Source of the DNA: an uncultured Clostridia bacterium
GTDB taxonomy: Bacteria; Bacillota; Clostridia; TANB77; CAG-508
NCBI GenBank assembly: GCA_963931155.1
Contig: OZ006978.1
Coordinates: forward strand, 1,428,692 to 1,492,691
DNA length: 64,000 nucleotides
Reading direction: 5' to 3'
This document shows, piece by piece, positions 13,956-62,429 of the stretch. The stretch's first letter is position 1; each line of letters begins with the position of its first letter. Position numbers and translations under genes: made by a program. The notes beneath the pieces are model-generated. The model saw only the letters and a list, made by a program, of their open reading frames with translations. It did no database searches and was not told the origin of the DNA.

Positions 13956-14103
13956 AGTATATAAATTAATCTCCTTTTTAAGTAATTTGTTTTATAATAT
14001 ATTTTCCTAAAAAAAATAATTTATGTAAAAAAATAAAAAATATAGTAATTTTTATTTTTTTATGATATACTCAATTTATAAATTTTTTAAATGGGAGGAA
14101 TTT

Positions 14104-14769
14104 ATGAAAACAAGTAATATTGTAATATTTTTAATAGTTGTAATTATTATAGCTGGAATATTTGGTTTTGCTATATGGGATATGAAAGATGAAACAGAAA
14201 CTATAGAAGAAAATAGTATCTTAAATTCTACAAATTCTGATGTGTTAATTCTAAACGAAACTCAAAATGGAAATTTAATAATAACTGAACCATCAAATAC
14301 ATTAAACCAGGATAATAACTCAATGCAAAATTTAAATATGTACAAAGGTGAATGGTATATTAGTCAAGAGGAATATGCTAATGAAGAGCGAATAGATGAA
14401 TTAATGGATAGAAGAGAAGACCATCTAATTACAGATGAAGAATTTGAAAACCAACTACAAACATTAAAAAATGATGAGTTTGCTGAATTAGATGTTGATG
14501 AGTATTTTGGAAATTCTATAAAATTTGATTTTGAATTAACAGGACCTGCACCAACACAAAGAGTTGCAAGAATAGAGGATATGGTTGTAGAATTAAACAA
14601 TAATGTAGGAACTTTTACATATATTGATAATTGGGGAACAAGTGGAAATGGAACAATAACATTAAAAGATAACCAAATAGAATTAAAACTAGAAACAACT
14701 AAAGTAAACCAAGGCACATTATGGGGAGTAGAAGGCTCATATACATTTTCATTTAGATTAGGTGACTAA
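14104..14769 (+). CDS. Hypothetical N-terminally anchored protein (acidic/Asn-rich ectodomain)
   Basis: GGAGG RBS then ATG at 14104 (the track ORF starts earlier at 14062 with no RBS). Single TM. A terminator follows. Confidence 0.55.
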   Translation: MKTSNIVIFLIVVIIIAGIFGFAIWDMKDETETIEENSILNSTNSDVLILNETQNGNLIITEPSNTLNQDNNSMQNLNMYKGEWYISQEEYANEERIDELMDRREDHLITDEEFENQLQTLKNDEFAELDVDEYFGNSIKFDFELTGPAPTQRVARIEDMVVELNNNVGTFTYIDNWGTSGNGTITLKDNQIELKLETTKVNQGTLWGVEGSYTFSFRLGD

Positions 14770-14830
14770 TTTAACGCGAAAAAATATTTGTCTGAAAGTA
14801 TATAGGCATAATAAAGAACTAAAATTAAAA

Positions 14831-14878
14831 ATAAATAGCATTTTACTAAAAAAGTAAAATGCTATTTATTTTTTAACT
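14831..14878 (+). terminator. Rho-independent terminator
   Basis: AAATAAATAGCATTTTACT-loop-AGTAAAATGCTATTTATTT then a T-run. Confidence 0.75.
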
Positions 14879-15065
14879 TACTTAAATGTCAGAATCAATT
14901 AGTTCATTAAGATTTAATCTATTTATATTACAGAAATATTACAGAAATATGACATTTTTGTAAACGGCTTTTTTTCTTATTTCTAAAAATGTTGAAAAAT
15001 CAAGGAAAATACAATTCGCTGTAATGTTTGCTAAAAATTGACAGTTCTTTTTTTCGACAAAAGTA

Positions 15066-15094
15066 TTGAAAAAAATTTTCTTTATCGATATAAT
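15066..15094 (+). promoter_or_regulatory. Sigma-A-like promoter for the surface-protein/F1-like ATPase operon
   Basis: TTGAAA, 17 nt, TATAAT, about 80 nt upstream of the RBS/ATG at 15172. Confidence 0.45.
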
Positions 15095-15156
15095 ATGATT
15101 ACATCGATTAGATTGGAGAAAAGCGGAATAAATCTTAAAGAGAAACATCAAGATAA

Positions 15157-22039
<6,883 letters not shown>

Positions 22040-22043: not shown

Positions 22044-22301
<258 letters not shown>

Positions 22302-22308
22302 AAGGTGA

Positions 22309-23163
<855 letters not shown>

Positions 23164-23183
23164 AGAAAGGAGAACATTTAGTT

Positions 23184-24542
23184 GTGGGGACACATATTGA
23201 AGATTTAGTAAATCAAAAAGTAGAACAGATAAAAAATAAAGAAAACATTTTTGACTCTGGAACAGTTATAAAAGTAAAAGATTATATAATAGAAGTTTCT
23301 GGACTTGAAAATGTAACATACTTTGAAAAAGTAACTATTTGGGAAAAAGGAATGGGGTATGTAAATCAAATAAACGAAAACTCTGTTACAGTTGCAATTG
23401 TTAAGGAGAATGCCCCAATAAAAATAGGAGATATAGTAAAAACAACAGGAGAACAATTTAAAGCAGTATTCGCAAAAGAAGCAATTGGTAGAATAGTAGA
23501 TATATTTGGAACAGATTTATTGTCTGGAAAAGCATTTGAAAAAATAAAATATATAAATATAGAAAACGAAACTATTCCAATAATGGATCGTAGAGAAGTT
23601 AAAAGACCAATGCTTACAGGTATTGCAGGTATAGACTTAATATACCCAATAGGAAAAGGACAAAGACAATTAATAATAGGAGATAAAAAAACAGGAAAAA
23701 CTCAAATTGCTCTAGATACTATAGTAAATCAAGGCTCAGAAAGAGCAGAAAGTGAAAATGATGTAGTTTGCATATATATAGCAGTTGGAAAAACAAAAAA
23801 AGAAATAAAAACAATATATAATGAACTTCTAAAAAGAGGTGCATTATCATATACCACTATGGTAGTTGCTACTAATGATGATAAACAACCAGTAGTAAGT
23901 TTAATTCCTTTTGTTGGACTTTCTATAGCAGAAGAATACATGAAAATGAAAAAAGATGTAATAGTTGTAATAGATGACTTAAAAAAACATGCTGATACTT
24001 ACAGAGAAATAAGCTTAATTTCAGGAAAAACACCTGGTAGAGAAGCATACCCAGCAGATATATTCTATCTTCATGCAAGACTTCTAGAAAAAGGATGTCA
24101 ATATAAAAATGGTGGTTCAATAACAATACTGCCAATAGTAGAGACCAAAGGTGGAGATATAACAGACTATATTTCAACAAATATTATATCAATTACAGAT
24201 GGACAAATAGTTATGTCTGAAAAAGAATTTGCAAAAGGAAACAAACCAGCTATAAACTATAAAAACTCTGTTTCTAGACTAGGAGGAGCAGTTCAAAAAC
24301 CAGAAATTAAAAGCTTAGGAGCACAAATAAGAAGAACATTCTTAAGCTATCTAGAAACAAAAGAAGTTTATGAACTAGCAAATATGGATGAAATGACAGA
24401 AGAATTAAGAAACAAAATGAAAATAGGAGCACAAATACAAGAAGCATTAAACCAACCTAAGTTTATGCCATTATCTAATGAAGAAATAATAGATAAGTTT
24501 GAAGCAATAGTAAAACAGGAAGGATATACAAATGAAAATTAA
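23184..24542 (+). CDS. F1 ATPase alpha-subunit-like protein
   Basis: P-loop GDKKTGKT (alpha-type), KTPGREAYPADIFYLHARLLE (alpha signature), 452 aa, GTG start with RBS. Confidence 0.88.
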   Translation: MGTHIEDLVNQKVEQIKNKENIFDSGTVIKVKDYIIEVSGLENVTYFEKVTIWEKGMGYVNQINENSVTVAIVKENAPIKIGDIVKTTGEQFKAVFAKEAIGRIVDIFGTDLLSGKAFEKIKYINIENETIPIMDRREVKRPMLTGIAGIDLIYPIGKGQRQLIIGDKKTGKTQIALDTIVNQGSERAESENDVVCIYIAVGKTKKEIKTIYNELLKRGALSYTTMVVATNDDKQPVVSLIPFVGLSIAEEYMKMKKDVIVVIDDLKKHADTYREISLISGKTPGREAYPADIFYLHARLLEKGCQYKNGGSITILPIVETKGGDITDYISTNIISITDGQIVMSEKEFAKGNKPAINYKNSVSRLGGAVQKPEIKSLGAQIRRTFLSYLETKEVYELANMDEMTEELRNKMKIGAQIQEALNQPKFMPLSNEEIIDKFEAIVKQEGYTNEN

Positions 24543-25305
24543 AAGTGTAGTAAAAGTAATGAATTTTCATTCTTTGTTAAAGGTAGATAAAGCTAGACGT
24601 AGAGCAGAAAAATACTTTGCTTATGAAAAAGGTTTAACAGACTTTGTTGATAATATATTAAATAATAGAAATTTAATATTAGACAAAAAAATGTTAAAAC
24701 TAGATAAAAAACAAAAACCTTTAAACATATATATTGGAAACGATTTAGGATTTTGTGGTAACTTTAATTCAAATGTAAATAGAGAAGCACGTTTAGACAA
24801 AGAAAGTAATAAAATAATAATTGGAAAAAAAATATTAAATGGTAAATCAAATGTGCTTCTAGCTCTTACAAAAGAAGAATATTTACAAAATACAAAGCAA
24901 ATAGAAGATTTAATATATGATCAAATTGTAAATTCTAAAATAAGCGAAATGAATTTAATATATAATCATTACTATAATATTAGTAAAATAGAATTAGTAA
25001 AAAGAAAAATATTACCATTAGAAGAAGAAACATATACAACAAAATCACATAAAGAAGATTTTGCAATAGAAGGAGATATAAACGATATATTAATAAATAT
25101 AATTGCTATGTATTTATCATATGAAATTAGAGTTGCAACAGAAAATAGCTATGCATCAGAAAATGTGGCAAGGCAAATGCTAACAAAAGAATCTTTAAAG
25201 AAAATTGACGAAATTGAAGAAGAAGAATTAAGAGTAAGCAGAAAAGAGAAAAACGCAAAAAGCTTTAAAAAAGTTGTAGAAAACTATATAAAATTACAAA
25301 ATTAA
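24532..25305 (+). CDS. F1 ATPase gamma-subunit-like protein
   Basis: N-terminal IKSVVKVMNF..KVDKARRRAE helix, a GFCGNFNSN motif (compare the gamma GLCGGFNSN), and a C-terminal ASENVARQM helix (compare the gamma ASEHAARM). Confidence 0.8.
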   Translation: MKIKSVVKVMNFHSLLKVDKARRRAEKYFAYEKGLTDFVDNILNNRNLILDKKMLKLDKKQKPLNIYIGNDLGFCGNFNSNVNREARLDKESNKIIIGKKILNGKSNVLLALTKEEYLQNTKQIEDLIYDQIVNSKISEMNLIYNHYYNISKIELVKRKILPLEEETYTTKSHKEDFAIEGDINDILINIIAMYLSYEIRVATENSYASENVARQMLTKESLKKIDEIEEEELRVSRKEKNAKSFKKVVENYIKLQN

Positions 25306-25336
25306 AAAAACTATAAAGAAAAAGAATAAAAGATAA

Positions 25337-26999
<1,663 letters not shown>

Positions 27000-27085
27000 A
27001 AATCGACAAATCTAAAATTTAAATTAAATAATAAAAAATTTAAATGAAACTCATCTTTTAAGGACAAGTCTTAGATAAATAATAA

Positions 27086-27643
<558 letters not shown>

Positions 27644-28563: not shown

Positions 28564-28590
28564 CCAATTTGAAATAATTATGATATAATA
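28564..28590 (+). promoter_or_regulatory. Promoter of giant gene copy 1 (extended -10 TGaTATAAT with TTCCAA -35)
   Basis: The same promoter block recurs upstream of copy 3 (50734-50761) and, in variant form, at 38090-38118 and 39498-39526. Confidence 0.5.
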
Positions 28591-28658: not shown

Positions 28659-31600
28659 ATGAGAAAAGCTAAAAACCGTATGGCTCTAGAGAGAGAGAGA
28701 GAGCTACACTATTAAATAACCTACCAGTATTCATACTAGTAGGAATAGTTGTAATGCTAATAATACTAGTAGTAATATATTATATATTTTTAAGATATTC
28801 ACCAGAGCAAATAATAACATATAGTGGGTATGCAATAGAAGGAAAAGAGATGGTGGAGAACTTAAAGAGCAGTGATAAGTCCAAGTTAGCACCATACTTG
28901 GGCTTAATTGCTGTGCAAGAGAATGATTTGATATATAAAAAATTAAATTCATATTACATAGGAGAAGATGATAAAAAAGAAATAGACATAAATTATCCAA
29001 TATACATAAATGAAGGAAATGCACTTTTAAACTTAGGAGAGAACACAAAACTAATAACAGTAAATTATGAAGAAGTAGAAGGTTATCCAGACTTCATGAT
29101 GGCAGATGGAGTAATGTATAATGGAGCTGATATAACAAGAGCAGATGGAAATAAGTATTTATTCCTAAAAAGTGAAGATGAAATATATACAAATGTAGAA
29201 CCGATAACAATAACAACATCAACAGGAAAGTATACAATAAAAGAATATAGTAACATATATTTTGCAGAAGACCATATAGCATATTATGAAATGGAAGGCA
29301 TGCAAGGAAAAAACGAGCAAAATGAAAATAATGAAGAAAATAAACAAAACAATAATTTAAAAGATAGTTATTTAGAATATAAGCAAATAAAACCAATAGA
29401 CCCAGATTCAAAAACAAAGATAAATGGAGAAACAATAACATATAAAACATTACTAGAGAGACTAGAGATTTTGCAAACCGAAGAAAGCAACAATGAAAGT
29501 AATAACAACAAAGAAAATGCAACAAACGAAACAAAAGAAGACGATCTAAAAAATACGACAAACGAAGAGAACACAATTGCAGAAGAAACTACAGGACAAA
29601 ACAGTAATATAAGCAATAATCAAAATACGACAGACACAGAAAATAACAATAGCGACAAGGATGAAGACGAATGGCAAGAAGGAATGTGGGAAAAACCAGA
29701 AGTAAGCTGTACAGACTTTGAAAGTGATGTATATACAATAAGAACAAATCTATCAGTAAGAGATAGAGCAGGAGTTATAACAAGAGGAATAACATTTGAA
29801 ATATATCTAGATGGAAGACTAAATAGAAGAGTACAAGCTAGCCAAGCGGGAACACTAGAAATAACAAACTTACAACCAAGTTCAGAGTATGAGATAAGAG
29901 GAATATTTTATTACAATGATGAAAACGGAGTAGAACAAGAAGAAGAGTTTTACACAGGAAAAGTAACAACAAAATCAATAGATACATTAGGAACATTAGA
30001 CTTTAGCTTCCAAAATGGAAAAATATATTCAAATAAAATAGAATTAATACACTTGAAATTAAACAATGCCTTAAATGAAGAAGTAGTAAGAGGAATATCA
30101 AGGGTACAAGTAGAAATAGGAGATGCAGCATATAGATTAACAAATGCACAAATAGATGAATTAAAAGCAGGAAAAGAAATAACATATCAAACAAGTGAAA
30201 ACTTAACATCAAATAGTAAGATAAAATATGAAATAACAGCATTTGATAGATATGGAAATGAATTAAAAGAGAAGAACAACACAGGAGAAACAATAACATC
30301 AAAACAAGCACCAACATCAAGTATAAGAGTAACAAAACAAGATGTAACAGAAGTAGACTTAGAAATAACACTTACAAATAAAGATAATGTAAGTTTAGAA
30401 AACTATAGATATGAGATAACAAATCAAAGTGGAGATGTAGTAAAACAAGGAACACTAGGCAACAATGGAGTAGCAAGCAATGGAAACAAAGATGAATTAG
30501 CATTTACAGACTTAGACCCTAATGGATATTATCAAATAGTAATCTATGGAGATTATGACTTAGAAAATGGAGAAGGAAAACATCAAAATAGTGAACTAGG
30601 AAGAGGAAGCTTTGTAACAAGACCAATAGCATCACTAGGATATATGCAAGTGAAAATAGACGACAAAGAAGTAACACAAGATAGCATGAATCTTGGAATA
30701 AGTATAGATACAGTACAAACAGATGCAAGATTAGTAGCAATATTAAATAAAGTTGAAGTAGTAATCTATGACCAAGGAAAAAACACAGATAACGGTTCTG
30801 ATGAAAACAATGGACAATCAGAAGAAGAAACACAGGGAACAGAAATAAAGAGAATAACTCTAACAGATGAAGAAGTAGAAAAACTAAAAACATCAGAAGA
30901 AATAGAACTAAATCTAGAACAACTAACATCAAATACAAAATACAGAATAGATGTAATCACAACAGTAAAACAAGGTTCAGTTGAAGAAGTAGTAGAAGAT
31001 AAACAAAACATAGACCAAATAATAACACTAAAAATGCCAGCAGAAGTACAAATAAGAAACCAATTTGTAATAGGAACAATGATAGACCTAGACATGAGAA
31101 TAGAAGATATAGATGGAGCAGATTTAGTAGATAAAGTAAGAATAGAAGTAAGAGATAAAGACAATAAGTTAGTAGACTTAAGTGAAATGGCAACAAACCA
31201 AGATTATGAAAGAAAAACATATGAAGGACTAACACCAAATGAAACGTATACAATACTGGTATATGCACCACAATACAATGAAGGAAGCACAGATGCAACA
31301 TATAAAGCAGATTACTTATTAAAAAAGATAGAAATAGTAACAGAAACAGGAATAAGTGGAAAGTTAGATTTAATAGGACTAGAAAAAACACCAACAGGAA
31401 AGAATTTAATAGATGTAAGTTCTAAAGTAAATTGGTTTGTTTCTTGTTTTAATATAGGAAACTATAATTATCCAATAAGTTATGATGAAAATACAAATAT
31501 ACTTACGTTTTTAGGTACAAATCAATGGAGTTTAAGCTGCATGTATTATGATTTAAGCAAATATATTGGAAAAGAAATAACAGTAAGTTTTAAAGCAAAA

Positions 31601-34600
31601 TCTTCAGAAGATACTACATTGCAAATAATGGAAAAACGTGAAGATGATTTTTCAAATGTTGGTTATGTTAATCCACAGTTTGCTAATGTGACTACTGAAT
31701 GGAAAGAATATAGTTATACATTAACATTAAGTAAAACTGGATATTTGGGATTTTATGAACCAAATAGTGCAACAATTGAATTTCAAAATTTACAAGTTGA
31801 ACTTGGAAATAGAAAAACAGATTATGAAGAATTTAAATATGACTATAATGCAAATATTGCAGTAACTGTAATAGATGCGAGAAATGAAATTATAACAAAT
31901 GATTATTATGTACGCATTTATAAAAACAATGAGCAAATTCAAGAGATAAGGTATGAAGAAATTGGAGAAGAAAATAAAGTAGAAAATGTTCAAAAATCAT
32001 ACAATATAGAACCAAATGAAACATATAAAATAGAGCTATTAGTAAAAATAGCAGATAGATATTATGAACTAGATTCGCAAGAATTTTCAACAGAAGGTTC
32101 AAGAGAAGTTAAAGGAATACTTAATAAAAATGACTTTTTGAAAATTCAGCCATTTGGTGAATATATAGTATTAAGTGATTTAGATTTATCAGATTTTACA
32201 AGTGGAATGTATCGATTCGGAGCCGATAATTTACAATTTAATGGAAAAATAAATTTTAATGGTAAAACATTAACAAGAGGTATAAAAAATAGTGGTAGTC
32301 CTATTTTTTACTCTATTGGAAAAGAAGGAATAATAGAAAACTTAGATTTTAACATAAAAATGGACAATAATATGGAAAAACAAATGACGGGTGGACTTGC
32401 ATTCGATAATTATGGCAGTATAAAAAATATAATAATTAAATTAACAGAATCTTCAGAATTAAGAAATTCAAAGGTAGCTTTATGTGTTTGGGAAAACTAT
32501 GGAACTATAGAGAATTTTATTTTAAATTTTGAAGTTTCATTGTATGTGAACAATGAAGGAATTGGACTTACTAGTTGGAATTATGGCGTTGTAAAAAATG
32601 GGTATGCATATGGTGAAAATATAAAATTAACAAATAGTGTAAGTAGTAGTTCAAGTGTATGCAGTGTAATTGTAAGGCAAAATTCAAATAATGCAATTTT
32701 AGAAAATATATATACATTAGTAAGTATCGATAATCTTTATCCTGAAGGTAAAAAAGATAAAGCTTGTATTGTATTACAGAATGTAGGTAATGCAACGGTA
32801 CAAAACGTTTATTCTGTGGGATTCGGGGAAAATACAGATTTAACACTTGGACCAAATGTATATAGTAAAGTATCTAAAAAAATTTATAATAATTATTATT
32901 TTTCAAATGAAACATTTACGAGCAAATTTGAAACAAAAGGAAACAAATTATCGTTATGGGATGCAGAGTTTCAAAATCAATTGATAAATACGGATGAAGC
33001 ATTTATTGTAGATGATTTAGTAAATGAAGGCTATTATCCTCAACTTAATTTACCAGATATAATGCCCGCACAAGAATATATAGAATTACCAGAGGTAAAA
33101 GATGCAGATTTGCCAGATATATTATCAACGAAAGTTTTAGAACAAGGTACAGATACTGTTAAGGTACAATTTAGTGTAAATAATCCATCAGCAGAACAAA
33201 TAACAGAAATAAATATACAAAATATAGAAGTAGAAATATTATCGCAAGAATATAATAATGGAAAAAGTATTGTAATAGCAGAATTAAAAAATCCAATTAT
33301 ATGTGTATCAAAATATAATGTAATAAGTTTAACAGTAAAAGGAGCATTTGGAGGAGGATATACAAGACCATATGAAGAAGGAGAAAGAGTAATAAATGTA
33401 GATTTATATAAAGAGATATGGGATGTAAATGATTGGAAAGCTATAAATGAATCGCCAACAGAAAATTATATGCTTATGACTGATTTAGATTTTATAAATG
33501 AGGGAAATACTGTAAATGTTTCAAGAGTAGATGGAATTATAAATGGAAATGGACATACTATATCAAATATAAATTTAACAAATAATTATTATTTTATAGG
33601 AGAGTTATATGGAACGTTAGAGAATTTATTTATTGACAAGTTTAATCAAAGTGTTTCTATATATGGAGGCGCGATTGCGACGGCAAAAACGAATTCTTTA
33701 ATAGATAATGTGCATTTAAAAAATGTACAAATTTATAAAAATTATAAAAATGGACAGTGGGGAGCTGGAGGTCTTTTACGTATTGCTCAATATTGTACAG
33801 TTAAAAATTGTTCGGTTAATAATATAAAGATAAATACAGAAGGAACATCTAATGAAATTAGTGTAGGTGGTCTTGTTGGAATATCTGAAGGTACAACAAT
33901 AGAGAATTGTTTTGTACAAGGATTAAATGTGACTGATTCTAGGGGAGTTAGTTCTGGTATAGGAGGAATAGTTGGAATTGCTCGTGGTTCAAATAGAATT
34001 AAAGCTTGTTATTCAGAAGGAATTATAAATTCTGACAACTTTAATGTTGGAGGTATTGTAGGAAAAGTGGAATCAAAAGACAACATAGAAAATTGTTATT
34101 CGAAAGTAACAATATCAACAACAAACATTAATGTTGGAGGTATAATTGGCAGTTATTCCGAAACAGATTTAAGCACTATAGAAAATAATTTAAGCATTGG
34201 AAATATATATACAACATCTGGAATAAATACTTTAAATAGAATAGTTGGAAACAATAATGATACGGTAAATAATAACTATGCTTATGAAAATCAAAAATTA
34301 AATGGCTATATAAGTAAAGAAGAAAAAGGAGCAACGCTTTTAGATAAAAATAACATATTAAACTTGAATTTAGGAGAGAGTTATAATTATGACAATAAAT
34401 CAAGAGGAATATTACCGAAATTATATAATACAGAAGGAACAGAGTTATTACCAAACCAGAGCGATATATTATTAGATAATACTTCAGAAGATATGTCAGA
34501 ATTGGAAGTAAAAAGTATAGAAGCATCAAAACCTAATACAACTGAAGCAGAAATTTCTATTAGTATTAATAATCCAGAACAAATTGAAATAACAGGAGTA

Positions 34601-37600
34601 ATAATAGAGGACATGACTGTTACGGAAGTGTCGAGAAATGTAACTCAAAATGGAATGACTAATATTGTAGTAAAAGCAACACCTAATAGATATTATGATA
34701 GTTACAAATTAACTGGAATATATTATAAAGATTTAAAAGGTGAAGAAAAAATAGTAGAATTGGAAGCTGAAATTGAAGTACAGTTTTATAAAGAAATATA
34801 TACATATGAAGATTGGCAAAGTATAGAAGAAGGTACATATCAAAATTATAGATTAATGGCAGATATAGATTTTAGCGGAAGAACTAATGTAAAAAACAAT
34901 ATAACAGTAAATAGATTGGAAGCGGAAAATAGAATTTATACTTTAAAAAATATTGATTTATCATATGATTCACCAAATACAGGATTAATAAATAATGTAA
35001 AATCAAGCATAAAAAATATAGGCTTTGAAAATATAAAATTAACAAACACATCAAATTCTGGAAATTATTTTGGCGTAATATCAAGTAACAGTGGCAATAT
35101 GGAAAATTTAAATTTTAAAGATATAATTATAAATGCTAAAGGCATAAGTTATTTAGGATGTATTGGGGGAATGGTTTCAGGCGATGGAATAAAAAATATT
35201 AAATTACAGAATATAACTATAAATGGAAATGGTTATATAGGAGGTTTGCTTGGATATATTAAATTAGATAAAGAAGGAATCATAAAAGATATAAAAGGAA
35301 ATAATCTTACAATTGAAGGAAAAAGTAATTATGTTGGAGGAATTATAGGATATCAATATGGAAAGTATCTTGAAACAAGCAATATTTCTATTAGTGATTC
35401 AAATATAAAAGGCAATGATTATACTGGTGGTATTTGGGGATATATTTATTACTATAAAATTACTTATTTGGTTGTTAATAATTTAGATATTTCAGGACAT
35501 TCGCATGTCGGTGGAATTGCAGGTTATTCAATAACTATTTCTAGTGCAACGGAATATTTATATCAGAATATGGAAATATTAGATTCTGATATTACAGGAA
35601 CTGGTAATTATATTGGTGGTGTTACTGGTTATAGCTATGGAGGTAATATTAAAAATTTTTCTTCAAGTAATTGCACTATTAATATACCAAATTCGAATTC
35701 TGAAGATATAGGAGGAGTTGTAGGAAGAACTGCATGGGTAACTGTTAGTAACTTTGACATATCTAAAATAGAAATCTATGGAAAAGGCAAGAATGTAGGA
35801 GGTATTATTGGAAATAATGCAGACAACGAATCTGCAGATGGTGATGCTATTAATGGATACTTGAGTGAAGGCTTTATCGAGGGCAATCAAAATGTTGGAG
35901 GAGCAGTTGGAAGAGCAAGTTATGGTTCAATCAGGGACATATATATAAATGCAAATGTAAATGCAGAATATAGTTGTGCTGGGGGAGTATTTGGATATAT
36001 GGATAACACTAGAATGACAGCATCTGGTTTTCAATTGAAAGTGACAAATTCAATGGTATTAGATACTCAGGTAAAATCATCAACAAAGTCAGGAGGAATA
36101 ATTGGAGATATGGCAAAAGCAATATATAGAGAACAAGTATTTTATTACAATAACTATATAGATGCAGATGTAACAAGTGATAATACATCAACTGGTTCAC
36201 TAATAATTGGAGGAAGACCAGATGAAAATCCATACATTACAAATACATACGTATATAAGTACAGTACTTTAAATGGAGATTATGTATACACAACAAATGA
36301 TAATATAGATGATAAGCAATATTTAGTAAGAAATGATTTGGATAAAACAGAAACATTTAGAGATAAAATTGGACTTGGAACAACTTATTTGGACTATTCA
36401 TCTTTAGCTGAAGGAAAGTATCCAAAAATAAAAGATTCTTATTTATATGAACCAGATCTACAAACAGGGATAGACTTACCAACAGATCCAGACATTACAA
36501 TAATCAATTCATTAAATGATGCAAATACAGTAGGTAACAAAAATAATCTTGCGAACACAAATGATATTTCAACTCAAAGCATAGAAGCATTACCAACTAT
36601 TACAGCATATCCAGTTTCAGTAAATGAAATAAACATAGATTTTAGCTCAATGCCAGAAGGAGTAAGTTTCACATACTATATAAACGGACAAGAAAAAGAA
36701 AAGATAGATTTAGCAAATAAGACATATACATTTAATTACAATTATCAAGATACATTAGAAATAAAACTTACAAATAGCACAGATGAAGAAACAATCACAA
36801 TAAATCCTGACAATGTAAGAAGTGAGGCAAGCTTAGTAGGAGATAACAACGCATACATACTTGGAACAAGCTTATTCATTAATGGAGAATTGCAACAAGG
36901 GGAATATGTAAATGTATATGGTGGATTCGCATTAAATAAAAATGGACAAGTATTTGATATCGCAACAAAACAATTAGTTAGAAAAGATGCTACAACTACA
37001 ACAATTCTTTCAGAAACTGCAAAACCACTTCATACATACAACTACAAAGATAATAACATTGAAGTATATGGAACATATAGCAAAGTAAATGATAATGTAA
37101 AATCACAAATATACAACGTAAGAAGCGGTATATTATCAGCACTATCAAATAATTTAGACATGAAGATAAACAACTATATATCAGACAACTATAATAATAA
37201 AGAATACCAAACAATATTATCAAAAAACGGAGAAATAGTAGACTTAAAAGAAAAATTACAATATCCAGGAAACTTCTTTAGCAGAAATATAAAGCAAATA
37301 GTACAAAATAATGACCAAGAAAAAACAGAAATGATGGTATTGTACAATACAGGAAAAGTAATAGTATTTAACTATGTAACAGGAGAAGTTATATATGAAA
37401 ACGACGAAAAAGCAGATGAAGGACTAGTAGATTATATAGCTGGAAGTGTATCAAACATATGGGATAATTATGAAGAAAAACAAGAGGAATATTCAAAAGG
37501 AAAAGAATTAGCAGCAAAGCTTTCAGAAATGCCAATAGAAGAAGCAATGAAGCAAAAAAATAACAACAATAATGGAACAGCAATAGAAATGGCAAACAAT

Positions 37601-37906
37601 GAGCAAGAAGAAAGTAATACAATTACAAATAGTGCAGATAATTATATTACAGTATATAATGGAAACACAGATGAATATGATGTATATAGTGCAAATGAAA
37701 TCATAGGAGGAGAAGAAGAAAATCCAGTATCAGAAACAGAAAAAATAAAACAAAATGGACTAGAAAATATATACAAATATGCAACAAAAGAAGAAACGAA
37801 ACCACAAACAAACGGAGCTGTGATAGTAGCTGTAATAATTGTTGTAGCAATAATTGCATTAGTTATACTAAGAAGAATAATTATAAACAACAATAGGAAA
37901 AAATAA
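28659..37906 (+). CDS. Giant (~3080 aa) GLUG-repeat surface protein, paralog 1. It has N-terminal signal-anchor and C-terminal TM segments. It is phase-OFF in this assembly: the RBS-proximal ATG at 28659 is out of frame with the main ORF (28754-37906) because of the (AG)8 tract.
   Basis: N-terminus MRKAKNRMALERERE, then (AG)n, then TLLNNLPVFILVGIVVMLIILVV... The ectodomain has a shared N-terminal module, Fn3/Ig-like domains, a CBM-like variable module and long arrays of ..NVGGIIG../..VGGLVG.. (GLUG-type) repeats. The C-terminal TM is ..AVIVAVIIVVAIIALVILRR. Confidence 0.85.
28688..28703 (+). repeat. (AG)8 microsatellite inside the 5' coding region of giant gene 1
   Basis: Direct reading of the sequence. 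It lies between the upstream ATG (28659, frame 0) and the signal-anchor/main ORF (frame 2). Confidence 0.95.
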
Positions 37907-38163: not shown

Positions 38164-39471
38164 ATGTATAGAGATAAAATAGAAGAGTTAAAAAAATGGA
38201 AAGAATCATCTAATAGAAAACCTTTAATAATTAGAGGAGCAAGACAAGTAGGAAAAACTTGGCTAATGAAAGAATTTGGAGAAAAATATTATGAAAAATG
38301 TGCATATATAAATTTCGATGATAATTCAAGAATGAATAAACTTTTTGAAGAAAATTTTGACCTAGACAGAATAATACAAGGATTAAAAATAGAATCAGGT
38401 GTAAATATTGAGCCAGAGAACACTTTAATAATTTTTGATGAAATCCAAGAAACACCTAAAGCATTAAAAGCATTAAAGTATTTTTATGAAAATGCTAATG
38501 AATATCATGTAATATCAGCAGGTTCACTTTTAGGAGTTGCAATACATAGTGGAACTTCATTTCCTGTTGGAAAAGTAGATTTTTTAGATTTGATGCCTTT
38601 AAGCTTCTTTGAGTTTTTAAACGCATTAAATGAAAAAGATTTAGTAGAGCTGTTAAAAAGTAATGATTTTAACATGATTGATGTGTTTTCTTCTAAATTG
38701 AAAGATTATCTAAAAATTTATTATTATGTAGGTGGAATGCCAGAAGTTGTTAATTCTTATGTACAAAATAAAGACTTAGTAGAAGTACGAAGAATACAAA
38801 AAACATTACTAGAAGATTATGAACAAGATTTTTCTAAACACGCACCTAATAACATTGTGCCAAGAATTAGGCAGTTATGGAATAATATACCTACACAACT
38901 TGCGAAGGAAAATAAAAAATTTATCTATGGATTAGTAAGAGAGGGTGCAAGAGCAAGAGAATATGAAATAGCGTTATCATGGTTAATAGATTGCGGTCTT
39001 ATATACCAAGTAAATAGAGTAAATAATAGTAAAATACCATTGTCAGCATATCAGGATTTTAGTGCATTTAAATTGTATTTACTTGATGTAGGATTATTAT
39101 CTGCAATGTCAGGAATAGATGCAAAAACTATTTTAGAAGGAAATGAAATATTTAATGAATTTAAAGGAAGTTTAACAGAACAGTATGTTCTATGCCAATT
39201 AAAGCAATGTACAAACCTAGATATTTTCTATTGGTCAGCAGATACAGGAACAGCAGAGGTAGATTTTATAACACAAATAGGAACAAACAATGTTCCTATA
39301 GAAGTAAAAGCAAGTGAAAATTTACAAGCAAAAAGTTTAAAAACATTTGTGCAAAAATATAACACAAAAATTAATGTAAGAACTTCAATGTCTGATTACA
39401 GAAAAGAAGATTGGCTTATAAATATACCTCTATACAGCATAGGCAATATAGAAAAAATAACACAAATGTAA
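38164..39471 (+). CDS. AAA+ ATPase of the COG1373 family (AAA_14 N-domain plus DUF4143-type C-domain)
   Basis: Walker A GARQVGKTW and Walker B IIFDEIQ, about 430 aa, and a C-terminal domain with the CQLKQ..DIFYW..E(V)DFI pattern typical of this family. Confidence 0.8.
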   Translation: MYRDKIEELKKWKESSNRKPLIIRGARQVGKTWLMKEFGEKYYEKCAYINFDDNSRMNKLFEENFDLDRIIQGLKIESGVNIEPENTLIIFDEIQETPKALKALKYFYENANEYHVISAGSLLGVAIHSGTSFPVGKVDFLDLMPLSFFEFLNALNEKDLVELLKSNDFNMIDVFSSKLKDYLKIYYYVGGMPEVVNSYVQNKDLVEVRRIQKTLLEDYEQDFSKHAPNNIVPRIRQLWNNIPTQLAKENKKFIYGLVREGARAREYEIALSWLIDCGLIYQVNRVNNSKIPLSAYQDFSAFKLYLLDVGLLSAMSGIDAKTILEGNEIFNEFKGSLTEQYVLCQLKQCTNLDIFYWSADTGTAEVDFITQIGTNNVPIEVKASENLQAKSLKTFVQKYNTKINVRTSMSDYRKEDWLINIPLYSIGNIEKITQM

Positions 39472-39497: not shown

Positions 39498-39526
39498 CTT
39501 CCAATTTAAAAAAGATATGTTATAAT
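39498..39526 (+). promoter_or_regulatory. Promoter of the copy-2 leader/giant gene
   Basis: TTCCAA-like -35 and extended -10 TGtTATAAT. Confidence 0.45.
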
Positions 39527-39653: not shown

Positions 39654-39869
39654 ATGATAGCACGTGAAAGTCGCATGGCTCTAGAGAGAGAGAGAGAGAG
39701 AGAGAGAGTTACACTATTAGATAACAGATTCTTCGAAGGAAGAATCCTATTAAACGTGCTTAAAACTTTTAATAGAATAGATAAGTTAATTACAGGGATA
39801 GACTGTATCACTGTAAATGTTAGTAAAAGAAACATTTATGGTGATATGGCCTATCCTTTTTGCGTGTGA
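39654..39869 (+). CDS. Leader peptide ORF (71 aa) containing the (AG)13 tract and reading through the downstream terminator hairpin
   Basis: RBS AAAGGAAAGG then an ATG. The peptide is MIARESRMALE(RE)n..RFFEGRILL..TGIDCITV..AYPFCV*. Its stop lies immediately 3' of the terminator T-run. The other two frames stop within 6 codons after the repeat. Confidence 0.5.
   Translation: MIARESRMALERERERERVTLLDNRFFEGRILLNVLKTFNRIDKLITGIDCITVNVSKRNIYGDMAYPFCV
39683..39708 (+). repeat. (AG)13 microsatellite in the copy-2 leader ORF
   Basis: Direct reading of the sequence. Confidence 0.95.
39795..39861 (+). terminator. Strong composite intrinsic terminator/attenuator inside the copy-2 leader, upstream of the giant-gene start codon
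   Basis: GGGATAG..TATCAC..AAATGTT-loop-AACATTT..GTGATA..CTATCC (20 bp of nested stem) followed by TTTTT. Confidence 0.7.
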
Positions 39870-39925
39870 AAAGTAAGTATTTAAAGAAAAATAAGAAATC
39901 AAAAGCAGAAAGGAATTGAGGTATA

Positions 39926-42900
39926 GTGAGAAAAGATAGAATAAATAAAATACAAGTAAATAATAAAAAGAAACGTAAAGAAAAGAGAGGATTGAACAAT
40001 AAAGGAAAAGGCAAAAGAATAAATGTAAAGAATTTACCTACATTTATATTGATAGGACTAATCTTAATGATAATCATAATAGCAATAATCTATTATGTGT
40101 TTTTAAGGTATGCACCAGAACAAATAATAACATATAGTGGATATGCAATAGAGGGACAAGCATTAGCAGAAAACTTAAAAAATAGTGACATATCTAATGT
40201 TAAGCCATACTTGGATTTAGTAGAAGTACAAGAAAATGATTTATTGTATAAAAGATTAAATTCATACTATGTAGGTGAAGATGATAAAAAAGAGATAGAT
40301 ATTAATTATCCTATATACATAAACAATGGAAATGCTCTTTTAAACATAGGAAAGAACACAAAACTAATAACAGTAAATTATGAAGAAGTAGAAGGATATC
40401 CAGAGTTCATGATGACAGATGGAGTAATGTATAATGGAGCAGACTTAACAAGAGCAGATGGAAATAAATATATATTCTTAAAGAGTGAAGATGAAATATA
40501 TACAAATGTAGGAGCAATAAAGATAACAACAGTGTCAAACACATATAACATAAAAGAATTTAGTAATATATACTTTACAGAAAATGCTATTACATATTAT
40601 GAAATGGAAGATGGATATTTACAATATAAGAGAATAGATGATGTAGATAAAAACTCAAAAATAGAAGTAAATGGAGAAAGTTTAACATATAAAACATTCC
40701 TAGAAAGATTAGGAATAATAGATACAGAGGAAAACAACAGCAATGATAAAAAAGATAATGAAACCGAAGAAGCAAACAAGATAAATGAAAATACAGTAGA
40801 AGAACCAGAGCAAGTAAATGAAGAAAACTCAATAGATGAAAACAATAATACTAATGATTCCACAGAAAATAAGCAAGAAGAAAATCAAGAGCCAGAATGG
40901 CAAGAAGGAATGTGGGAAAAACCAGAAGTAAGTTGTACAGACTTTGAAGGAGAAGTATACACAATAAGAACAAATTTATCAGTAAGAGATAGAGCAGGAG
41001 TTATAACAAGAGGAATAACATTTGAAATATATTTAGATGGAAGATTAAACAGAAGAGTACAAGCTAGCCAAGCGGGAATACTAGAAATAACAAACTTAAG
41101 ACCAAGTTCAGAATATGAGATAAGAGGAATATTCTATTACAATGATAAAAACGGAGTAGAACAAGAAGAAGAGTTCTACACAGGAAAAGTAACAACAAAA
41201 TCAATAGATACATTAGGAACATTAGACTTTAGCTTCCAAAATGGAAAGATATATTCAAATAAAATAGAGCTAATACATCTAAAACTAAATAACAACATAG
41301 ATGAAGAAGTAATAAAAGGAATATCAAGGTTGCAAATAGAGATAGGAGATATAGCATATAGATTAAGTAATAACCAAGTAAATGATATAAAAGCAGGAAA
41401 AGAAATAACATACCAAACAAGTGAAAGTCTAACATCAAATAGTAGGATAAAATACAAAATAACAGCATTTGATAGATTTGGAAACGAATTAAAGGAGAAG
41501 AACAATGAAGGAGAAACAATAACCTCAAAACAAATGCCAACAGCAAGTATAAGACCAACAAAACAGGATGTAACAGAAATAGAGATAGAAGTAACACTAA
41601 ACAATAAAGATAATGTAAAACTAGAAAACTATAGATATGAAATAACAAACCAAAGCGGAGAAGTAGTAAAGAGTGGAGCATTAGGAAAAAACGATAATGG
41701 CACAGATGGTGGAAACTCCAATGAAGGAGAAAATATAAAAGATGGTACAAAGGAAACATTAAAATTTAACGACTTAGACCCAAATGGATATTATCAAATA
41801 GTAATCTATGGAGACTATGACCTGGAAGATGGAACAGGAATAAAAGAAAATGCAGAATTAGGAAGAGGAAGTTTTGTAACAAGACCGATAGCATCATTAG
41901 GATATATGCAAGTAAAAATAGATGATAAAGAAATAACACAAAATAGTATGAACCTTGGAATAAGCATAGATGAAAACCAAACAGATGCAAGACTTTTAGC
42001 AATACTAGATAAAGTAGAAGTAGTTATATATGACCAAGGTAAAAATAGCGACCAAATCAATCAAGGACAAGAAGAACAAAGCAAAGAAACCGAAGTACAA
42101 CGCATCACCTTCACTAAGGAACAAGTTCAGCAACTAAAAGTAGCAGAAGAGGTAGAACAAGACTTAGAGAGGCTAAATTCAAACACAATATACAGAATAG
42201 ATGTAATAACAACAGTAAAACAAGGAACAGTAGAAGAAATAGTAGAAGATAAACAAAACATAGAACAATTAATAACTTTAAAAATGCCAGCAGAAGTACA
42301 AATAAAGAACCAATTTGTAATAGGTACAATGATAGATCTAGACATGAGGATAGAGGATCTAGACAATGCAGTATTAACAAACAAAGTAAGAATAGAGGTA
42401 AGAGATAAAGACAATAAATTAATAGACTTAAGCGAAATGCAAACAAATGCAGACTACGAAAGAAAAACATATGAAGATTTAACACCTAATGAAGAATATA
42501 GAATAATAGTATATGCACCACAATACAACATAGGAAGTACAGATGAAACATATGAAGCAGATTACATCTTAAAAGAAATAAAGATAGTAACAGAAACAGG
42601 AATAAGTGGAAAGCTAGACTTAATAGGACTAGAAAAAGCACCAACAGGAAAGAACCTAGTAGATGTAAGCTCAAAAGTAAATTGGTTTGAAAGATGTTTC
42701 GATTTATCATATTCTTATGGTATAAATTATGACGAAAACACAAAAATACTCAAATTAGGAGAAAAACTAAGTGACAGTATGAAAAAGAAAGACTATTACG
42801 ATTTAAGCGAATATTTAGGACAAGAAGTAACAATAAGTTTTAAGGCAAGAACTGAAAATAATGCAAAATTGGAAGTGATAGAGAAACTTAATAATGACTT

Positions 42901-45900
42901 TTATAATACGGATTGGAAATCTTATTATAAAATAAATGATTTAAGCAAAGAGTGGCAAGAATACCAATACACATTAACTTTGAGCCAAACAGGGTATTTA
43001 GGATTTTATGTGTTAGAAGGTTATGCAACAGTAGAAATACAAAATTTACAAGTAGAACTTGGTAATAGAAAAACAGATTATGAAGAATTTAAATATGATT
43101 ACAATGCAAATATAGCAGTAACTGTAAGTGATGAAAGAGACGAAATAGCAACAAATGATTACTACATAAGGATATACAAAAACAATGAACAAATCCAAGA
43201 ACTACGTTATGAAGAAATAGGAGAAGACAACAAAGTAGAAAATGCTATAAAAACATACAATATAGAACCAAATGCAAATTACAAAATAGAGCTTTTAGTA
43301 AAAATAGGAGGGAGATACTATGAGCTAGATTCACAGGAATTTACAACAGAAGGAGCAAAAGAAATAAAAGGAATATTTAACTTAAATGACTATTTAAAAA
43401 TACAACCATTCGGCTCATATATTATTTTAAATGATTTAGATATGCAAAATTCTAGTAGTAAATATATTTTTGGAGCGTTTGTGGAAGAAGGTGGTTTTTC
43501 TGGAACCATAGACTATAATGGTAAAAAAATACATATTAGTTCTAATGAATTTTTTGGTCTGTTTAGAAGAATTGAAAAGAATGGAACAATTAAAAATGTT
43601 GTATTTGATATAAATTTTGATAATCCTTCAGATATATCAGAATTTCCTAGTTTAGTTGCCTATAATCATGGAAAAATGGAAAATATACAAATTAATATGT
43701 GGCAATCATCGAATGGTACAGTAGGTTTATATAAAATATTATGTGATTATAATTATGGAGTAGTTGACAATTTTATTATAAATGTAAAAAATGATATAAA
43801 TGTTTTGGGCAGTAGCCAAGTAGGTTTAATACTTAGAAATAATTTTGGAACGGTGAAAAATGGATATATTTATGGGCATGATATTAATGTAACAGAAACA
43901 AATAACGGGTATAAATATTTGGGGATAGTGTCTAACTATGCAAATGCTACAATATCTAATGTTTTTACACTTACAAATATTAATTATTTAAATTCTTTAA
44001 GTGATAATAATACTGCAAACATAGTATACAATAATTACGAGAATGCAACAGTACAAAATGTATATTCTGTTGGTGTTGGAAAGAATACAACAGATTTAAC
44101 ACACGGCCCTAATGTACATGTTAAAGGTTCAAAAAAAGTATATAACAATTATTATTTTGCCGATGAAATATTTACAAGTGAATTAGAAACAAAAGGAAAT
44201 ATGTTATCTTTATGGGATTCAACATTTCAAAACCAAATAATAAATCAAGATGGAGCTTTTATAGTAGATGAACTAGTAAATAAAGGATTTTACCCACAAT
44301 TAAATATGCCAGAATGTATGCCAGCACAAGAGTATATAGAATTACCAGAAGTAAAAGACGCAGACTTACCAGACATATTATCAACTAAAGTATTAGAGCA
44401 AGGCACAAATACAGTAAAAGTAGAATTTAGTGTAAATAATCCATCATCAGAAACAATAAGTAATATACAAATAGAAAATATAGATGTTGATATACTTTCA
44501 CAAGAGTATAATAATGGAAAAAGTACAGTAATAGCAGAATTAAAAAATCCAATAATTTGCGTATCAAGTTACAATGTACTAAGTATAAGTACAAAAGGAG
44601 CATATGGAAGTACATATAAAAGAGAATATGAAAAAGGAGAAAGAGTAATAAATGTAGATCTATATAAGGAAATATGGAATGTAACCGATTGGAAAGCAAT
44701 TGCAGATTCACCAACAGAGAACTATATGTTAATGGAGGATTTGAACTTTATAAATGAAGGAAATTCCATCCACATTTCAGAGATAAGAGGAATATTAAAT
44801 GGAAACGGACATACTGTTTCTAACATACATTTAAATAATGGAGAACCATTGTTTTACATGGTATATGGCACATTAAAGGATATGTATATAAAAAATTATA
44901 TACAAGAAGGAAAGATAACACATGGGGGTATTATAGCCGGATTAGCTTCTGGAAGAATAGATGGAGTACATGTTACAAATGCAGAGGTGAATTCTCAGGA
45001 AAATACTGGTACAGTAATGATCGGAGCTTTGATTGGGGATTGTTGGAATTCTTCAGTTACTAATTGCTCTGTAAACAATTCTTCAGTAAATGTTAATATG
45101 GAAACAGGAACTCTTTACTTGGGTGGGGCTATAGGTCAAGTTCAAAATACAACAATAGATTGTTGTTACACATATAATATTTCTATGAATGATTCTAATG
45201 TTACAAATGCAGGAATTGGAGGTATAATTGGCACAGGTTCATATAACAAAATTACTAATTGCTATTCAGGAGGAAAGATTGTATCTAAAAATATTAATGT
45301 AGGAGGAATATTGGGACTATCAGGTGCAGAAGTAGAAATAGAAAATTGCTATTCAACAGTTAATATATCTACAAATAATATAAATCTAGGAGGAATAATT
45401 GGAAGAAGTACGGCGGTAGATACAGAAGGAATTGTAAACAATTTAAGTATAGGAAAAATATATACAACATCTGGAATAGAAAGCATAAATAGAATAATAG
45501 GAAGTACCACTAATACAACAGATAATAATTATGCATATGAAAAACAATTATTAAATGGATATGCAAGTGAGGAAGAAAAAGGTGCTACTTTATTAACTAA
45601 AGAAGAAGTGCTAAATTTGAATTTGGGAGAAAGCTTTAATTATGATAAAAAGGGGGAAGGAATATTACCAAAGTTATATAATACAGAAGGAACTGAGCTA
45701 TTACCAAATCAACAAGATATATTCTTAGATGATAGTATGGAAGTTGGAAATGTAAATCTAGAAGTTGAAAGCATTGAAACAGCAAAACCAAATACAACTG
45801 AAGCAGAAATAACAGTAAAAATAAAGAATCCAGAAGAAATAGAAATAACAGATTTAGAAATAGAAGATATGGAAGTTGCAGAAGTAACAAGAAACGTAAC

Positions 45901-50933: not shown

Positions 50934-60592
<9,659 letters not shown>

Positions 60593-61813: not shown

Positions 61814-62044
61814 ATGAGCAAGCTTGAAAGCCTTGGCGCTGTACACACACACACACACACACACACAATATGTTCTTACCAAAAGGAATGTTGGAAACAA
61901 AGTACAAGAATAGATAGAAGATTCTTCGAAGGAAGAATCCTATTAAGCATGCTTACAATAAATAATTATATAGATAACAAAGGTAAAACAGGGATAGACT
62001 GTATTACTGTAGGTGTTCGAAAAAGAGCACTTATGGCAATATAG
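61814..62044 (+). CDS. Orphan leader-peptide ORF containing (AC)12, encoding (HT)n and reading into its own terminator
   Basis: ATG with an AG-rich RBS. The peptide is MSKLESLGAV(HT)n..RRFFEGRILL..GKTGIDCITV..*. It has the same hairpin and terminator modules as the copy-2 and copy-4 leaders. Confidence 0.45.
   Translation: MSKLESLGAVHTHTHTHTICSYQKECWKQSTRIDRRFFEGRILLSMLTINNYIDNKGKTGIDCITVGVRKRALMAI
61843..61867 (+). repeat. (AC)12 microsatellite
   Basis: Direct reading of the sequence. Confidence 0.95.
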
Positions 62045-62057
62045 CCTATCCTTTTTT
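61991..62057 (+). terminator. Leader-associated intrinsic terminator (GGGATAG...CCTATCC then T6)
   Basis: The same outer stem as in the copy-2 and copy-4 leaders, with a different inner helix. Confidence 0.6.

Positions 62058-62207: not shown

Positions 62208-62429
<222 letters not shown>

Follow-up and report, generated by a model that had tools for sequence, protein, structure and literature searches.

The DNA analysed here, called the window throughout, is a stretch of 64,000 nucleotides from an uncultured Clostridia bacterium (contig OZ006978.1, positions 1,428,692 to 1,492,691 of the forward strand) that carries a tandem array of giant genes, designated paralogs A to D. We consider it likely, with a probability of roughly 0.7, that these genes encode surface proteins of a hitherto undescribed family, adhesin-like, mosaic, and phase-variable, in which both binding and switching are predicted properties. 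Cells would then express, in a stochastic manner, adhesin-like proteins with different binding and antigenic modules on a constant stalk, an arrangement that may carry a selective advantage. The array begins at about 28.7 kb and continues to the end of the window, with three paralogs of about 3,100 amino acids and part of a fourth. The genes, from the list of open reading frames (ORFs) and their translations (A to C) or from alignment (D), are as follows.

28754..37906, + strand: paralog A, 3050 amino acids
39926..49358, + strand: paralog B, GTG start, basic N terminus, frameshifted
51047..60592, + strand: paralog C, 3181 amino acids
62486..64000, + strand: paralog D, 5' part only, GTG start, truncated by the window edge

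Variable modules on a conserved stalk

Each giant protein has a transmembrane segment at the N terminus, immunoglobulin (Ig)/fn3-like repeats, and a C-terminal transmembrane segment followed by a basic tail. In paralog A the order is N-terminal transmembrane anchor, Ig/fn3-like stalk, a domain resembling a carbohydrate-binding module (CBM), three β-helices, and the C-terminal transmembrane segment with its basic tail. Both ends would serve as membrane anchors, and the proteins are presumably exposed on the surface. The listed ORF of A begins within the transmembrane segment because the true leader ATG (28659) is out of frame. Paralog D has a leader and N terminus similar to those of B, followed by a block resembling A and C. 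The original prediction described A, B, and C as complete, but B is interrupted by a 1-nucleotide frameshift near 46603 (region 46595-46640), which splits it into ORFs 39926-46639 (2237 amino acids) and 46767-49358 (863 amino acids). The site has no homopolymer, and the identical split is found in two long-read assemblies, L015 and L026; it could be a genuine pseudogene or an assembly error common to both.

The prediction had placed two sharply bounded divergent segments, cassettes 1 and 2, between four anchor motifs of the three paralogs. Paralogs and motifs were found at the predicted positions, with the motifs present in A, B, and C, and the segments were confirmed at the predicted coordinates. 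Two further and larger variable modules, as well as several variable low-complexity linkers, were found in proteins that the prediction took to be otherwise conserved; the two modules occupy residues ~1599-1750 and ~2103-2640 of A. On alignment, the flagged cassettes are thus two of four apparently autonomous, fast-diverging variable modules.

31424..31834, + strand: cassette 1 of A (KVNWF...RKTDYEEF), CBM4/9/22-like β-sandwich (anchor motifs, alignment, fold)
42674..43090, + strand: cassette 1 of B, 49% amino acid identity to A and 46% to C (anchor motifs, tblastn)
53783..54193, + strand: cassette 1 of C (anchor motifs, tblastn)
32111..32821, + strand: cassette 2 of A, first right-handed β-helix module (anchor motifs, fold)
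43367..44074, + strand: cassette 2 of B, 33-35% amino acid identity to A and C (anchor motifs, tblastn)
54470..55186, + strand: cassette 2 of C, 37-38% amino acid identity to A (anchor motifs, tblastn)
33548..34010, + strand: third variable module of A, core of β-helix 2 with Pfam GLUG motifs (alignment, Pfam)
35060..36700, + strand: fourth and largest variable module of A, long GGxxG-repeat β-helix 3 (alignment)

In the three-way alignment, 40 of 125 columns are invariant in cassette 1 (32%) and 50 of 221 in cassette 2 (23%), as compared with 223 of 298 in the flanks and the spacer (75%); Fisher's exact test gives p = 4e-16 and p = 3e-33 for the two cassettes, respectively. Uniform divergence along the protein, which would have spoken against the cassettes, is therefore not what is seen. 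Among 16 family members from four genomes, mean pairwise identity is 0.76-0.86 in the flanks and 0.24-0.5 in the cassettes, and the same profile of conserved flanks and variable cassettes is seen in nine full-length members. Neither are the cassettes low-complexity linkers, since their sequence entropy is 4.0 and 3.9 bits, as compared with 3.4 bits for the Asn/Glu/Thr-rich linker, and the AlphaFold2 (AF2) models are confident.

The cassettes had been described as unrelated or only distantly related. The divergence is indeed strong, but all copies are clearly homologous, with 41-49% amino acid identity in cassette 1 (tblastn E 1e-25 to 1e-31) and 33-38% in cassette 2 (tblastn E 1e-19 to 1e-37). 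Similarly, the claim that the flanking DNA is nearly identical holds only for A and C upstream of cassette 1, where nucleotide identity is 90-100% up to position 31430; the remaining flanks have 77-91% nucleotide identity, with ~0.4-1.5 synonymous (dS) and ~0.05-0.2 nonsynonymous (dN) substitutions per site. Because dS is high and dN is low, the flanks are conserved as protein and not as near-identical DNA. Over most of the gene length synonymous divergence is near saturation (dS ~1). The stalk has dN of ~0.05-0.2 and the modules have dN of 0.5-0.9, corresponding by the NG86 method to dN/dS of ~0.1 and ~0.5-1. On these rates, the paralogs are judged to be old and the stalk to be under purifying selection. 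The only residues retained in the modules are those that determine the fold, namely Asn, Gly, and an aromatic core. Positive selection in the cassettes was considered and set aside, as dN/dS values of ~0.5-1 with saturated dS support no such claim.

The suggestion that cassette 1 is a CBM-like β-sandwich is borne out by structure prediction and by sequence. The AF2 model is all-β, with a predicted local distance difference test score (pLDDT) of 86 and a predicted template modeling (TM) score (pTM) of 0.81. A Foldseek search of the Protein Data Bank (PDB) gave 178 matches at E <= 1e-3, of which the best was 1gui (CBM4, E 4.3e-7, TM 0.57), followed by CBM4-2, CBM22, and CBM16. A family profile of cassette 1 also matches the sequence of 1gui_A (E 1e-4), and Pfam CBM_4_9 (PF02018) is matched at E <= 0.01 by 5 of 18 family copies, the best at 2e-5. 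When cassette 1 of A was compared by phmmer with 1.84 billion proteins, matches with E from 1e-9 to 6e-4 were obtained to proteins with Pfam-called CBM_4_9 domains (112-205 bits) that carry GH10, GH16, or CBM9; the same search returned ~40 clusters of proteins of 2,200-3,360 amino acids with the domain at an equivalent position. Aromatic columns (Trp, Tyr, Phe) are conserved. Cassette 1 is accordingly assigned, by predicted fold and sequence homology, to the CBM4/9/22-type β-sandwich superfamily. A concentration of the variability in the loops was considered and rejected, the effect being weak (conservation of 0.50 for strands versus 0.40 for loops).

Cassette 2 had been proposed to be a β-helix, in agreement with its AF2 model (pLDDT 78, pTM 0.80), which has regular short strands arranged as a right-handed β-helix, and with its Foldseek neighbors 5ny0, 3n6z (TM 0.51), 6xjb (TM 0.50), and pectate lyases, with probabilities of 0.99-1.0. 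The nearest folds are an adhesin domain of the Lactobacillus reuteri serine-rich repeat protein (SRRP), 3n6z (annotated as a putative IgA1 protease of Bacteroides ovatus), and the IgA1 protease of Streptococcus pneumoniae; 3n6z is also matched by sequence (E 3e-4). None of the three copies of cassette 2 matches GLUG (PF07581, cut-off 20.5 bits) at E <= 10, and the GLUG motif is found in β-helix 2 of the paralog protein (51 bits, residues ~1702-1727). As read from the translations, a cap motif, Y.EI..D[WF]..I....Y.L..D[LI][DN]F, opens every one of the three helices, which marks them as homologous variable helices of which cassette 2 is the first. From the models, we classify it as a predicted β-helix of the GLUG/IgA1-protease type. 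It is plausible that a change of cassette would alter ligand specificity.

Repeat-tract leaders and a putative switch

All 21 leaders, in the window and in foreign loci, have the same layout, with an ATG, 26 nucleotides, and then an (AG)n or (AC)n tract. The tracts thus lie 29 nucleotides past an ATG that is preceded by a ribosome-binding site (RBS), with n = 8 in A, 13 in B, 17 in C, and 16 in D, plus an (AC)12 tract before D. The same arrangement is found ahead of nearly all relatives in three other metagenome-assembled genomes (MAGs). The leader features of the window are as follows.

28581..28589, + strand: extended -10-like box TGATATAAT upstream of the A leader (consensus match only)
39518-39526, 50753-50761, 61771-61779, + strand: equivalent extended -10-like boxes (consensus match only)
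28659..28703, + strand: A leader ATG and (AG)8, tract at 28688-28703, OFF (sequence, frame simulation)
39654..39869, + strand: B leader ORF, 71 codons in the present frame, (AG)13 at 39683-39708, spanning the terminator hairpin (sequence, frame simulation)
39795..39861, + strand: ~26-bp stem-loop and T-run, terminator-like, past the tract of the B leader and ahead of the GTG of B (folding, alignment)
50934..50996, + strand: C leader ATG and (AG)17, tract at 50963-50996, OFF frame (sequence, frame simulation)
61814..62057, + strand: extra leader ORF with (AC)12 at 61843-61866 and its own terminator-like hairpin at 61991-62057 (sequence, folding)
62208..62429, + strand: D leader ORF with (AG)16 at 62237-62268 and a terminator-like hairpin at 62355-62421 (sequence, folding)

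Two forms of leader are present. The non-fused form comprises the leaders of B and D, the (AC)12 unit, and 16 leaders from foreign loci, and all 19 have a stem of ~26 bp with a run of five to seven T residues. In B, D, and the foreign leaders, a short hairpin lies between the tract and this terminator-like element, which is 60-110 nucleotides upstream of the RBS of the giant gene. The alifold consensus has 26 pairs, which are kept mostly by wobble-compatible one-sided changes, with compensatory changes in two pairs. In the FH30 loci the inner-stem sequence is divergent and the pairing is kept. The z-scores of the leader fold are -5.3 and -3.7. A generic scan for promoters and terminators gave no useful information and did not pick up the leader hairpin, which has a 9-nucleotide loop, and no Rfam family was matched at the gathering threshold anywhere in the window, leaders included.

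The reading frames of these leaders are consistent with a switch. In each of the 19 non-fused leaders, exactly one frame is open into or past the hairpin, with its stop at +134 to +253 and the T-run at +141 to +182, whereas the other two frames stop +6 to +49 after the tract. In B, D, and nearly all relatives, one frame of three would therefore carry the ribosome across the terminator, giving an attenuation-type phase variation. In A and C (28704-28760 and 50997-51050), a segment of 286 nucleotides present in B and D (39709-40010 and 62269-62570) is missing. It comprises the hairpins, terminator, RBS, GTG start, and basic N terminus, and its loss leaves the leader fused directly to the transmembrane segment. 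In this fused form, which has the appearance of a classical translational switch derived from the other, slippage would give an in-frame product only when n = 1 mod 3. In frame simulation, n = 1 mod 3 leads into the giant ORF in A and C and into the long leader in B and D; with n = 8 and n = 17, respectively, A and C are both out of frame, and hence OFF, in the window.

The tract lengths differ between samples. At locus A, n is 8, 12, or 13 in different samples, and at locus B it is 11, 13, 14, or 18 across assemblies; relative to the 13 units in the window, the locus B tract has 14 in L025 and L026, which are 99.97-99.98% identical to it, and 11 in L030 and L031 (99.92-99.95%). Contigs of the Illumina type (NODE_, k87_) likewise differ in tract length. 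As in slipped-strand contingency loci, a tract within a translated leader sets the frame, and its length is polymorphic among near-identical genomes. The tracts are probably hypermutable, and each gene is probably switched ON and OFF independently by slippage.

Paralog D appears to lie behind two leader/terminator units in series (61771-62486), the (AC)12 unit and then the (AG)16 unit, and the sole extended -10-like box for D lies before the first of these. A tandem of AC and AG leaders in this same order is also present in locus L006 (at 9173 and 9589).

Mosaic genes and alternative explanations

Abrupt changes of identity coincide with module borders at several places. The 5' third of C is 91-98% identical to A in nucleotide sequence, and the identity of the two genes, which is 90-100% up to position 31430 of A, falls to ~50% immediately beyond. 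In another lineage, the amino acid identity of P0020 and P0033 is 95-100% over 840 residues and drops to 32-40% where cassette 1 begins. Strains were compared at the A locus in contigs L027, L028, and L029, which come from three other samples, carry one and the same variant allele, and match the window at 96-98% nucleotide identity in the AAA_14 gene downstream and in the B leader. Between residues 201 and 1100, their gene has 94-100% amino acid identity to A (98% in cassette 1). Nucleotide identity remains 97-100% through cassette 1 and breaks at 32080-32110, after which cassette 2 is only 57% identical in amino acid sequence, and the C terminus of the variant is C-like (96-100%). The second gene of strain contig L024 is a patchwork of B-like, A/C-like, unique, and C-like segments. 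Across family members, cassette similarity and flank similarity are uncorrelated (Spearman 0.02 and 0.17).

These breakpoints at module borders indicate that homologous recombination reshuffles the modules, and the donors appear to be other paralogs or alleles of full length. The conserved stalk segments would serve as the homology substrate for recombination and gene conversion, and crossovers or conversion tracts that end at module borders would produce mosaic genes with new combinations of modules. The original proposal of cassette swapping holds in a looser sense, in that strain alleles keep cassette 1 and yet differ in cassette 2, but the exchanged tracts exceed a single cassette. Concerted evolution of the flanks was considered and rejected: flank identity is 80-84% between the window and MF81 and 81-85% within the window, so that grouping by genome is weak, and strong purifying selection with patchy conversion of the 5' third fits better than homogenization across the genome.

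Several observations weigh against a family of switched, mosaic adhesins. The PF02018 scores of the window copies of cassette 1 (20.9 bits for A, 15.7 for B, and no match for C) are below the gathering score of 25.9 bits, and the Foldseek E-values for cassette 2 are weak (~2e-3, TM 0.3-0.5). Carbohydrate or host binding by the modules would follow from fold analogy. The strands of cassette 1 are only slightly more conserved than its loops (p = 0.045), and because dS in the cassettes is saturated, positive selection is inseparable from relaxed constraint. Conserved blocks beyond the breakpoint between A and L027 stay at 83-87% nucleotide identity, and a long 3' tract was therefore exchanged and not a single cassette. 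The differences in tract length come from metagenome assemblies, some of which are built from long reads and contain indel errors (L015 has 19 gap openings). Finally, ribosome-dependent antitermination is considered to be rarer in Firmicutes, where transcription-translation coupling is weak.

The paralogs might instead be ancient duplicates whose modules diverged passively under relaxed constraint, with no adaptive variability and no meaningful exchange. Such a history would fit dS of ~1 over most of the gene length, dN/dS of ~0.5-1 in the cassettes that nowhere clearly exceeds 1, the barely greater conservation of strands than of loops, and the finding that each copy has a cassette type of its own and not one of a small shared set. 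It does not account for breakpoints at which 97-100% nucleotide identity on one side meets ~50-60% on the other (strains at the A locus, A and C, P0020 and P0033), whose abruptness rules out gradual drift as their source, nor for the coupling of every copy to a hypermutable switch, which is typical of fluctuating selection, and we regard it as unlikely. The same breakpoints could be assembly artefacts, with the mosaics representing chimeras of near-identical paralogs in metagenomes. The loci do come from MAGs or metagenome contigs, of which several end in or close to the repeat tract, and the long-read contigs contain indel errors. However, the arrangement in the window recurs at >=99.9% identity in the independent assemblies L015, L016, L024-L026, L030, and L031, which were made with different assemblers and read types, the ORFs stay open for >3,000 codons across the junctions, and L027, L028, and L029 have an identical variant allele in three samples, so that this explanation appears highly improbable.

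The sharp boundaries of the variable segments at conserved anchors, and recombination tracts that stop at module borders, are also what would be expected of programmed switching, in which silent, promoterless donor cassettes are copied into an expression site as in pilE/pilS, vlsE, or MgPa. A search of the genome for silent donors had been suggested with the original prediction; tblastn with all six cassettes returned the resident copies alone from the 64-kb window, with no additional copy or fragment, and neighboring matches in related loci are full-length members of arrays. In addition, no paralog lacks a promoter-like box, a leader, and a switch of its own, and Pfam and NCBIfam scans identified no recombinase or reverse transcriptase among the scanned ORFs of the window; programmed switching is considered very unlikely. 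Localized variability, and nothing further, would suggest a diversity-generating retroelement or another form of targeted mutagenesis of the cassettes. The lack of a reverse transcriptase among the same ORFs, the lack of a template-repeat copy of any cassette in the window, and the many indels and changes of all residue types over 120-230 amino acids, which are unlike adenine-directed changes, leave this a negligible probability. A phase-variable family of mosaic surface proteins is thus the reading that we prefer.

Genomic setting and relation to known systems

The window has a GC content of 28%, and family scans of its ORFs identified the spore-germination genes gerA, gerB, and gerC, RNase R, and ABC transporters; judged from this gene content and base composition, the host is a low-GC, spore-forming Firmicute. 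Members of the giant-protein family are unnamed or listed as hypothetical in databases, and no published description of the family was found in the literature. There are at least four genes in the window and at least nine in one MAG, and the family covers dozens of 50%-identity clusters in metagenomes and takes up a large fraction of the ~1.75-Mb genome; a scan of JGI metagenomes yielded no additional members. Database gene calls for the family (P0001-P0062) are mostly truncated or have frameshifted tails, and the short-read contigs L018, L021, L022, and L023 terminate at or just before the A repeat tract, so that the family is systematically mis-assembled and mis-annotated. In practical terms, these loci break assemblies and yield frameshifted or truncated calls, and annotation pipelines will mis-call them systematically.

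The spacers of the array contain further genes, the first two identified by Pfam scan and the last by inspection.

38164-39471: AAA_14/DUF4143 ATPase gene in the spacer between A and B
49487-50701: AAA_14/DUF4143 ATPase gene in the spacer between B and C
60657-61410: overlapping ORFs of 120 and 133 amino acids between C and D

The two AAA_14/DUF4143 ATPases are paralogs of each other. One copy with 88% identity and others with ~50% identity to the one of 435 amino acids are present in loci L011 and L006, and no database record was found for the 404-amino acid AAA_14 gene. Judged by eye, the ORF pair at 60657-61410 reads like a nucleotidyltransferase (MNT)-HEPN toxin-antitoxin system. In strain contig L024 (ERZ21549450 NODE_68), an intact D-like mosaic gene of 3127 amino acids (11759-21308) follows the AAA_14 ATPase and is itself followed by an AbiEi-family gene. 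This contig therefore has a D-like gene and AbiEi in place of B, the second AAA_14 gene, and C, and the content of the array varies between strains.

Directly upstream of A is an atypical F-type ATPase operon (22056-27643) that encodes a c subunit (81 amino acids, PF00137), a 283-amino acid protein with transmembrane and coiled-coil segments, α, γ, and β subunits, a 100-amino acid ORF, and a 178-amino acid protein with five transmembrane segments; no recognizable a, b, δ, or ε subunit is encoded in the operon. The α subunit is below the atpA equivalog cut-offs, γ scores 73 bits versus 194, and β is borderline; α and β of the window also match the MMOB1660/1670 and MSC_0618/0619 models below threshold. 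Upstream of the operon are two N-terminally anchored surface proteins, one of 1784 amino acids that is repeat-rich by eye and has no Pfam match (15172-20526) and one of 496 amino acids with an fn3 domain (20549-22039). The operon is flanked by N-terminally anchored Ig/fn3 giants. The order p496-p283-α-γ-β-p178-p267-giant gene is kept in two other genomes (L003 and L007/L008). F1-like ATPases of Mycoplasma include that of the M. mobile gliding machinery, which has giant surface proteins, and the Type 3 ATPase associated with MIB-MIP (PMC3369863, PMC12994834). As in those systems, an atypical F-type ATPase operon lies beside giant surface-protein genes in the window; the window operon differs in having a c subunit, and the link is one of synteny. 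From this synteny it could be supposed that the ATPase powers a machine on the cell surface, for which the variable giant proteins would be interchangeable outer legs or adhesins; we consider this quite unlikely. BLASTP revealed no significant N-terminal docking domain common to the giant proteins and the membrane or accessory proteins of the operon. With its c subunit, the operon may simply be the divergent F1Fo ATPase of the cell, and it could equally be the ordinary ATP synthase of the organism.

The strategy of combining contingency loci with mosaic families of surface proteins is well known; the novelty lies in the protein family and its architecture and in the presence of two forms of one repeat-tract switch within a single array. 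A clostridial surface protein of comparable design is Clostridioides difficile CwpV, which combines a conserved anchoring part with strain-variable, antigenically distinct repeat modules and whose phase variation involves a terminator in the 5' leader, as proposed for B and D. The switch of CwpV differs in being a site-specific DNA inversion, and CwpV is a single, much smaller gene with other domains. In Neisseria pilE/pilS, Borrelia vlsE, and Mycoplasma genitalium MgPa, variable segments bounded by a conserved recombination substrate likewise give rise to mosaics. The window contains no silent partial copies, and because all copies are full-length with their own switches, there is no single expression site of the kind used in the silent-cassette systems.

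The modules themselves have counterparts in other proteins. Cassette 1 shares with the CBM4, CBM22, and CBM9 modules of glycoside hydrolases, such as the CBM4 of Thermotoga maritima Lam16A (1gui), a β-sandwich fold (TM ~0.5-0.6), as well as the profile match to 1gui and, by phmmer, significant similarity to the CBM_4_9 domains that accompany GH10 and GH16. It differs from them in that it has no catalytic partner and is set in a non-enzymatic stalk, is hypervariable among paralogs, and has window copies that score below the Pfam gathering threshold. The right-handed parallel β-helix of cassette 2 is shared with the GLUG β-helices of the IgA1 proteases of S. pneumoniae and Gemella haemolysans (6xjb, 7uvk) and of BACOVA_03286 (3n6z), to which the GLUG motifs in helix 2 and the sequence match to 3n6z add further likeness. 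The binding region of the L. reuteri SRRP (5ny0, 5nxk), which is a β-solenoid adhesin domain according to the entry description, also has a β-helix fold. Unlike the IgA1 proteases and the SRRP, the giant proteins have no metalloprotease domain, serine-rich repeats, or LPXTG motif, and they differ from proteins with GLUG domains in having three helices each, all variable, with no GLUG match in cassette 2 itself. Together, the stalk handles, the CBM-like module, and the three β-helix modules would exemplify combinatorial surface variation in uncultured Clostridia.

The putative switch most resembles that of Streptococcus gallolyticus pil1, in which a leader peptide with GCAGA repeats and a premature terminator give phase variation that has been demonstrated by experiment (Danne et al. 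2014, PMC3894217). In both cases a short leader ORF in the 5' part of the transcript contains a repeat tract, the start of the leader is separated from the surface-protein gene by a stem-loop terminator, and only frames that stop within or past the hairpin would let ribosomes melt it (PMC3894217). The arrangement in the window differs in that the tracts are built of AG or AC dinucleotides and leave one long frame in three, the targets are giant non-pilus proteins, and the module, known here from its sequence, is repeated before every member of the array and sometimes doubled (61814-62429). In A and C, the 286-nucleotide deletion would convert the module to an in-frame translational switch, so that a natural fused form neighbors the attenuator form of B and D. 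If confirmed, the switch would show the leader-peptide/terminator mechanism of S. gallolyticus at work with dinucleotide repeats and throughout a gene family.

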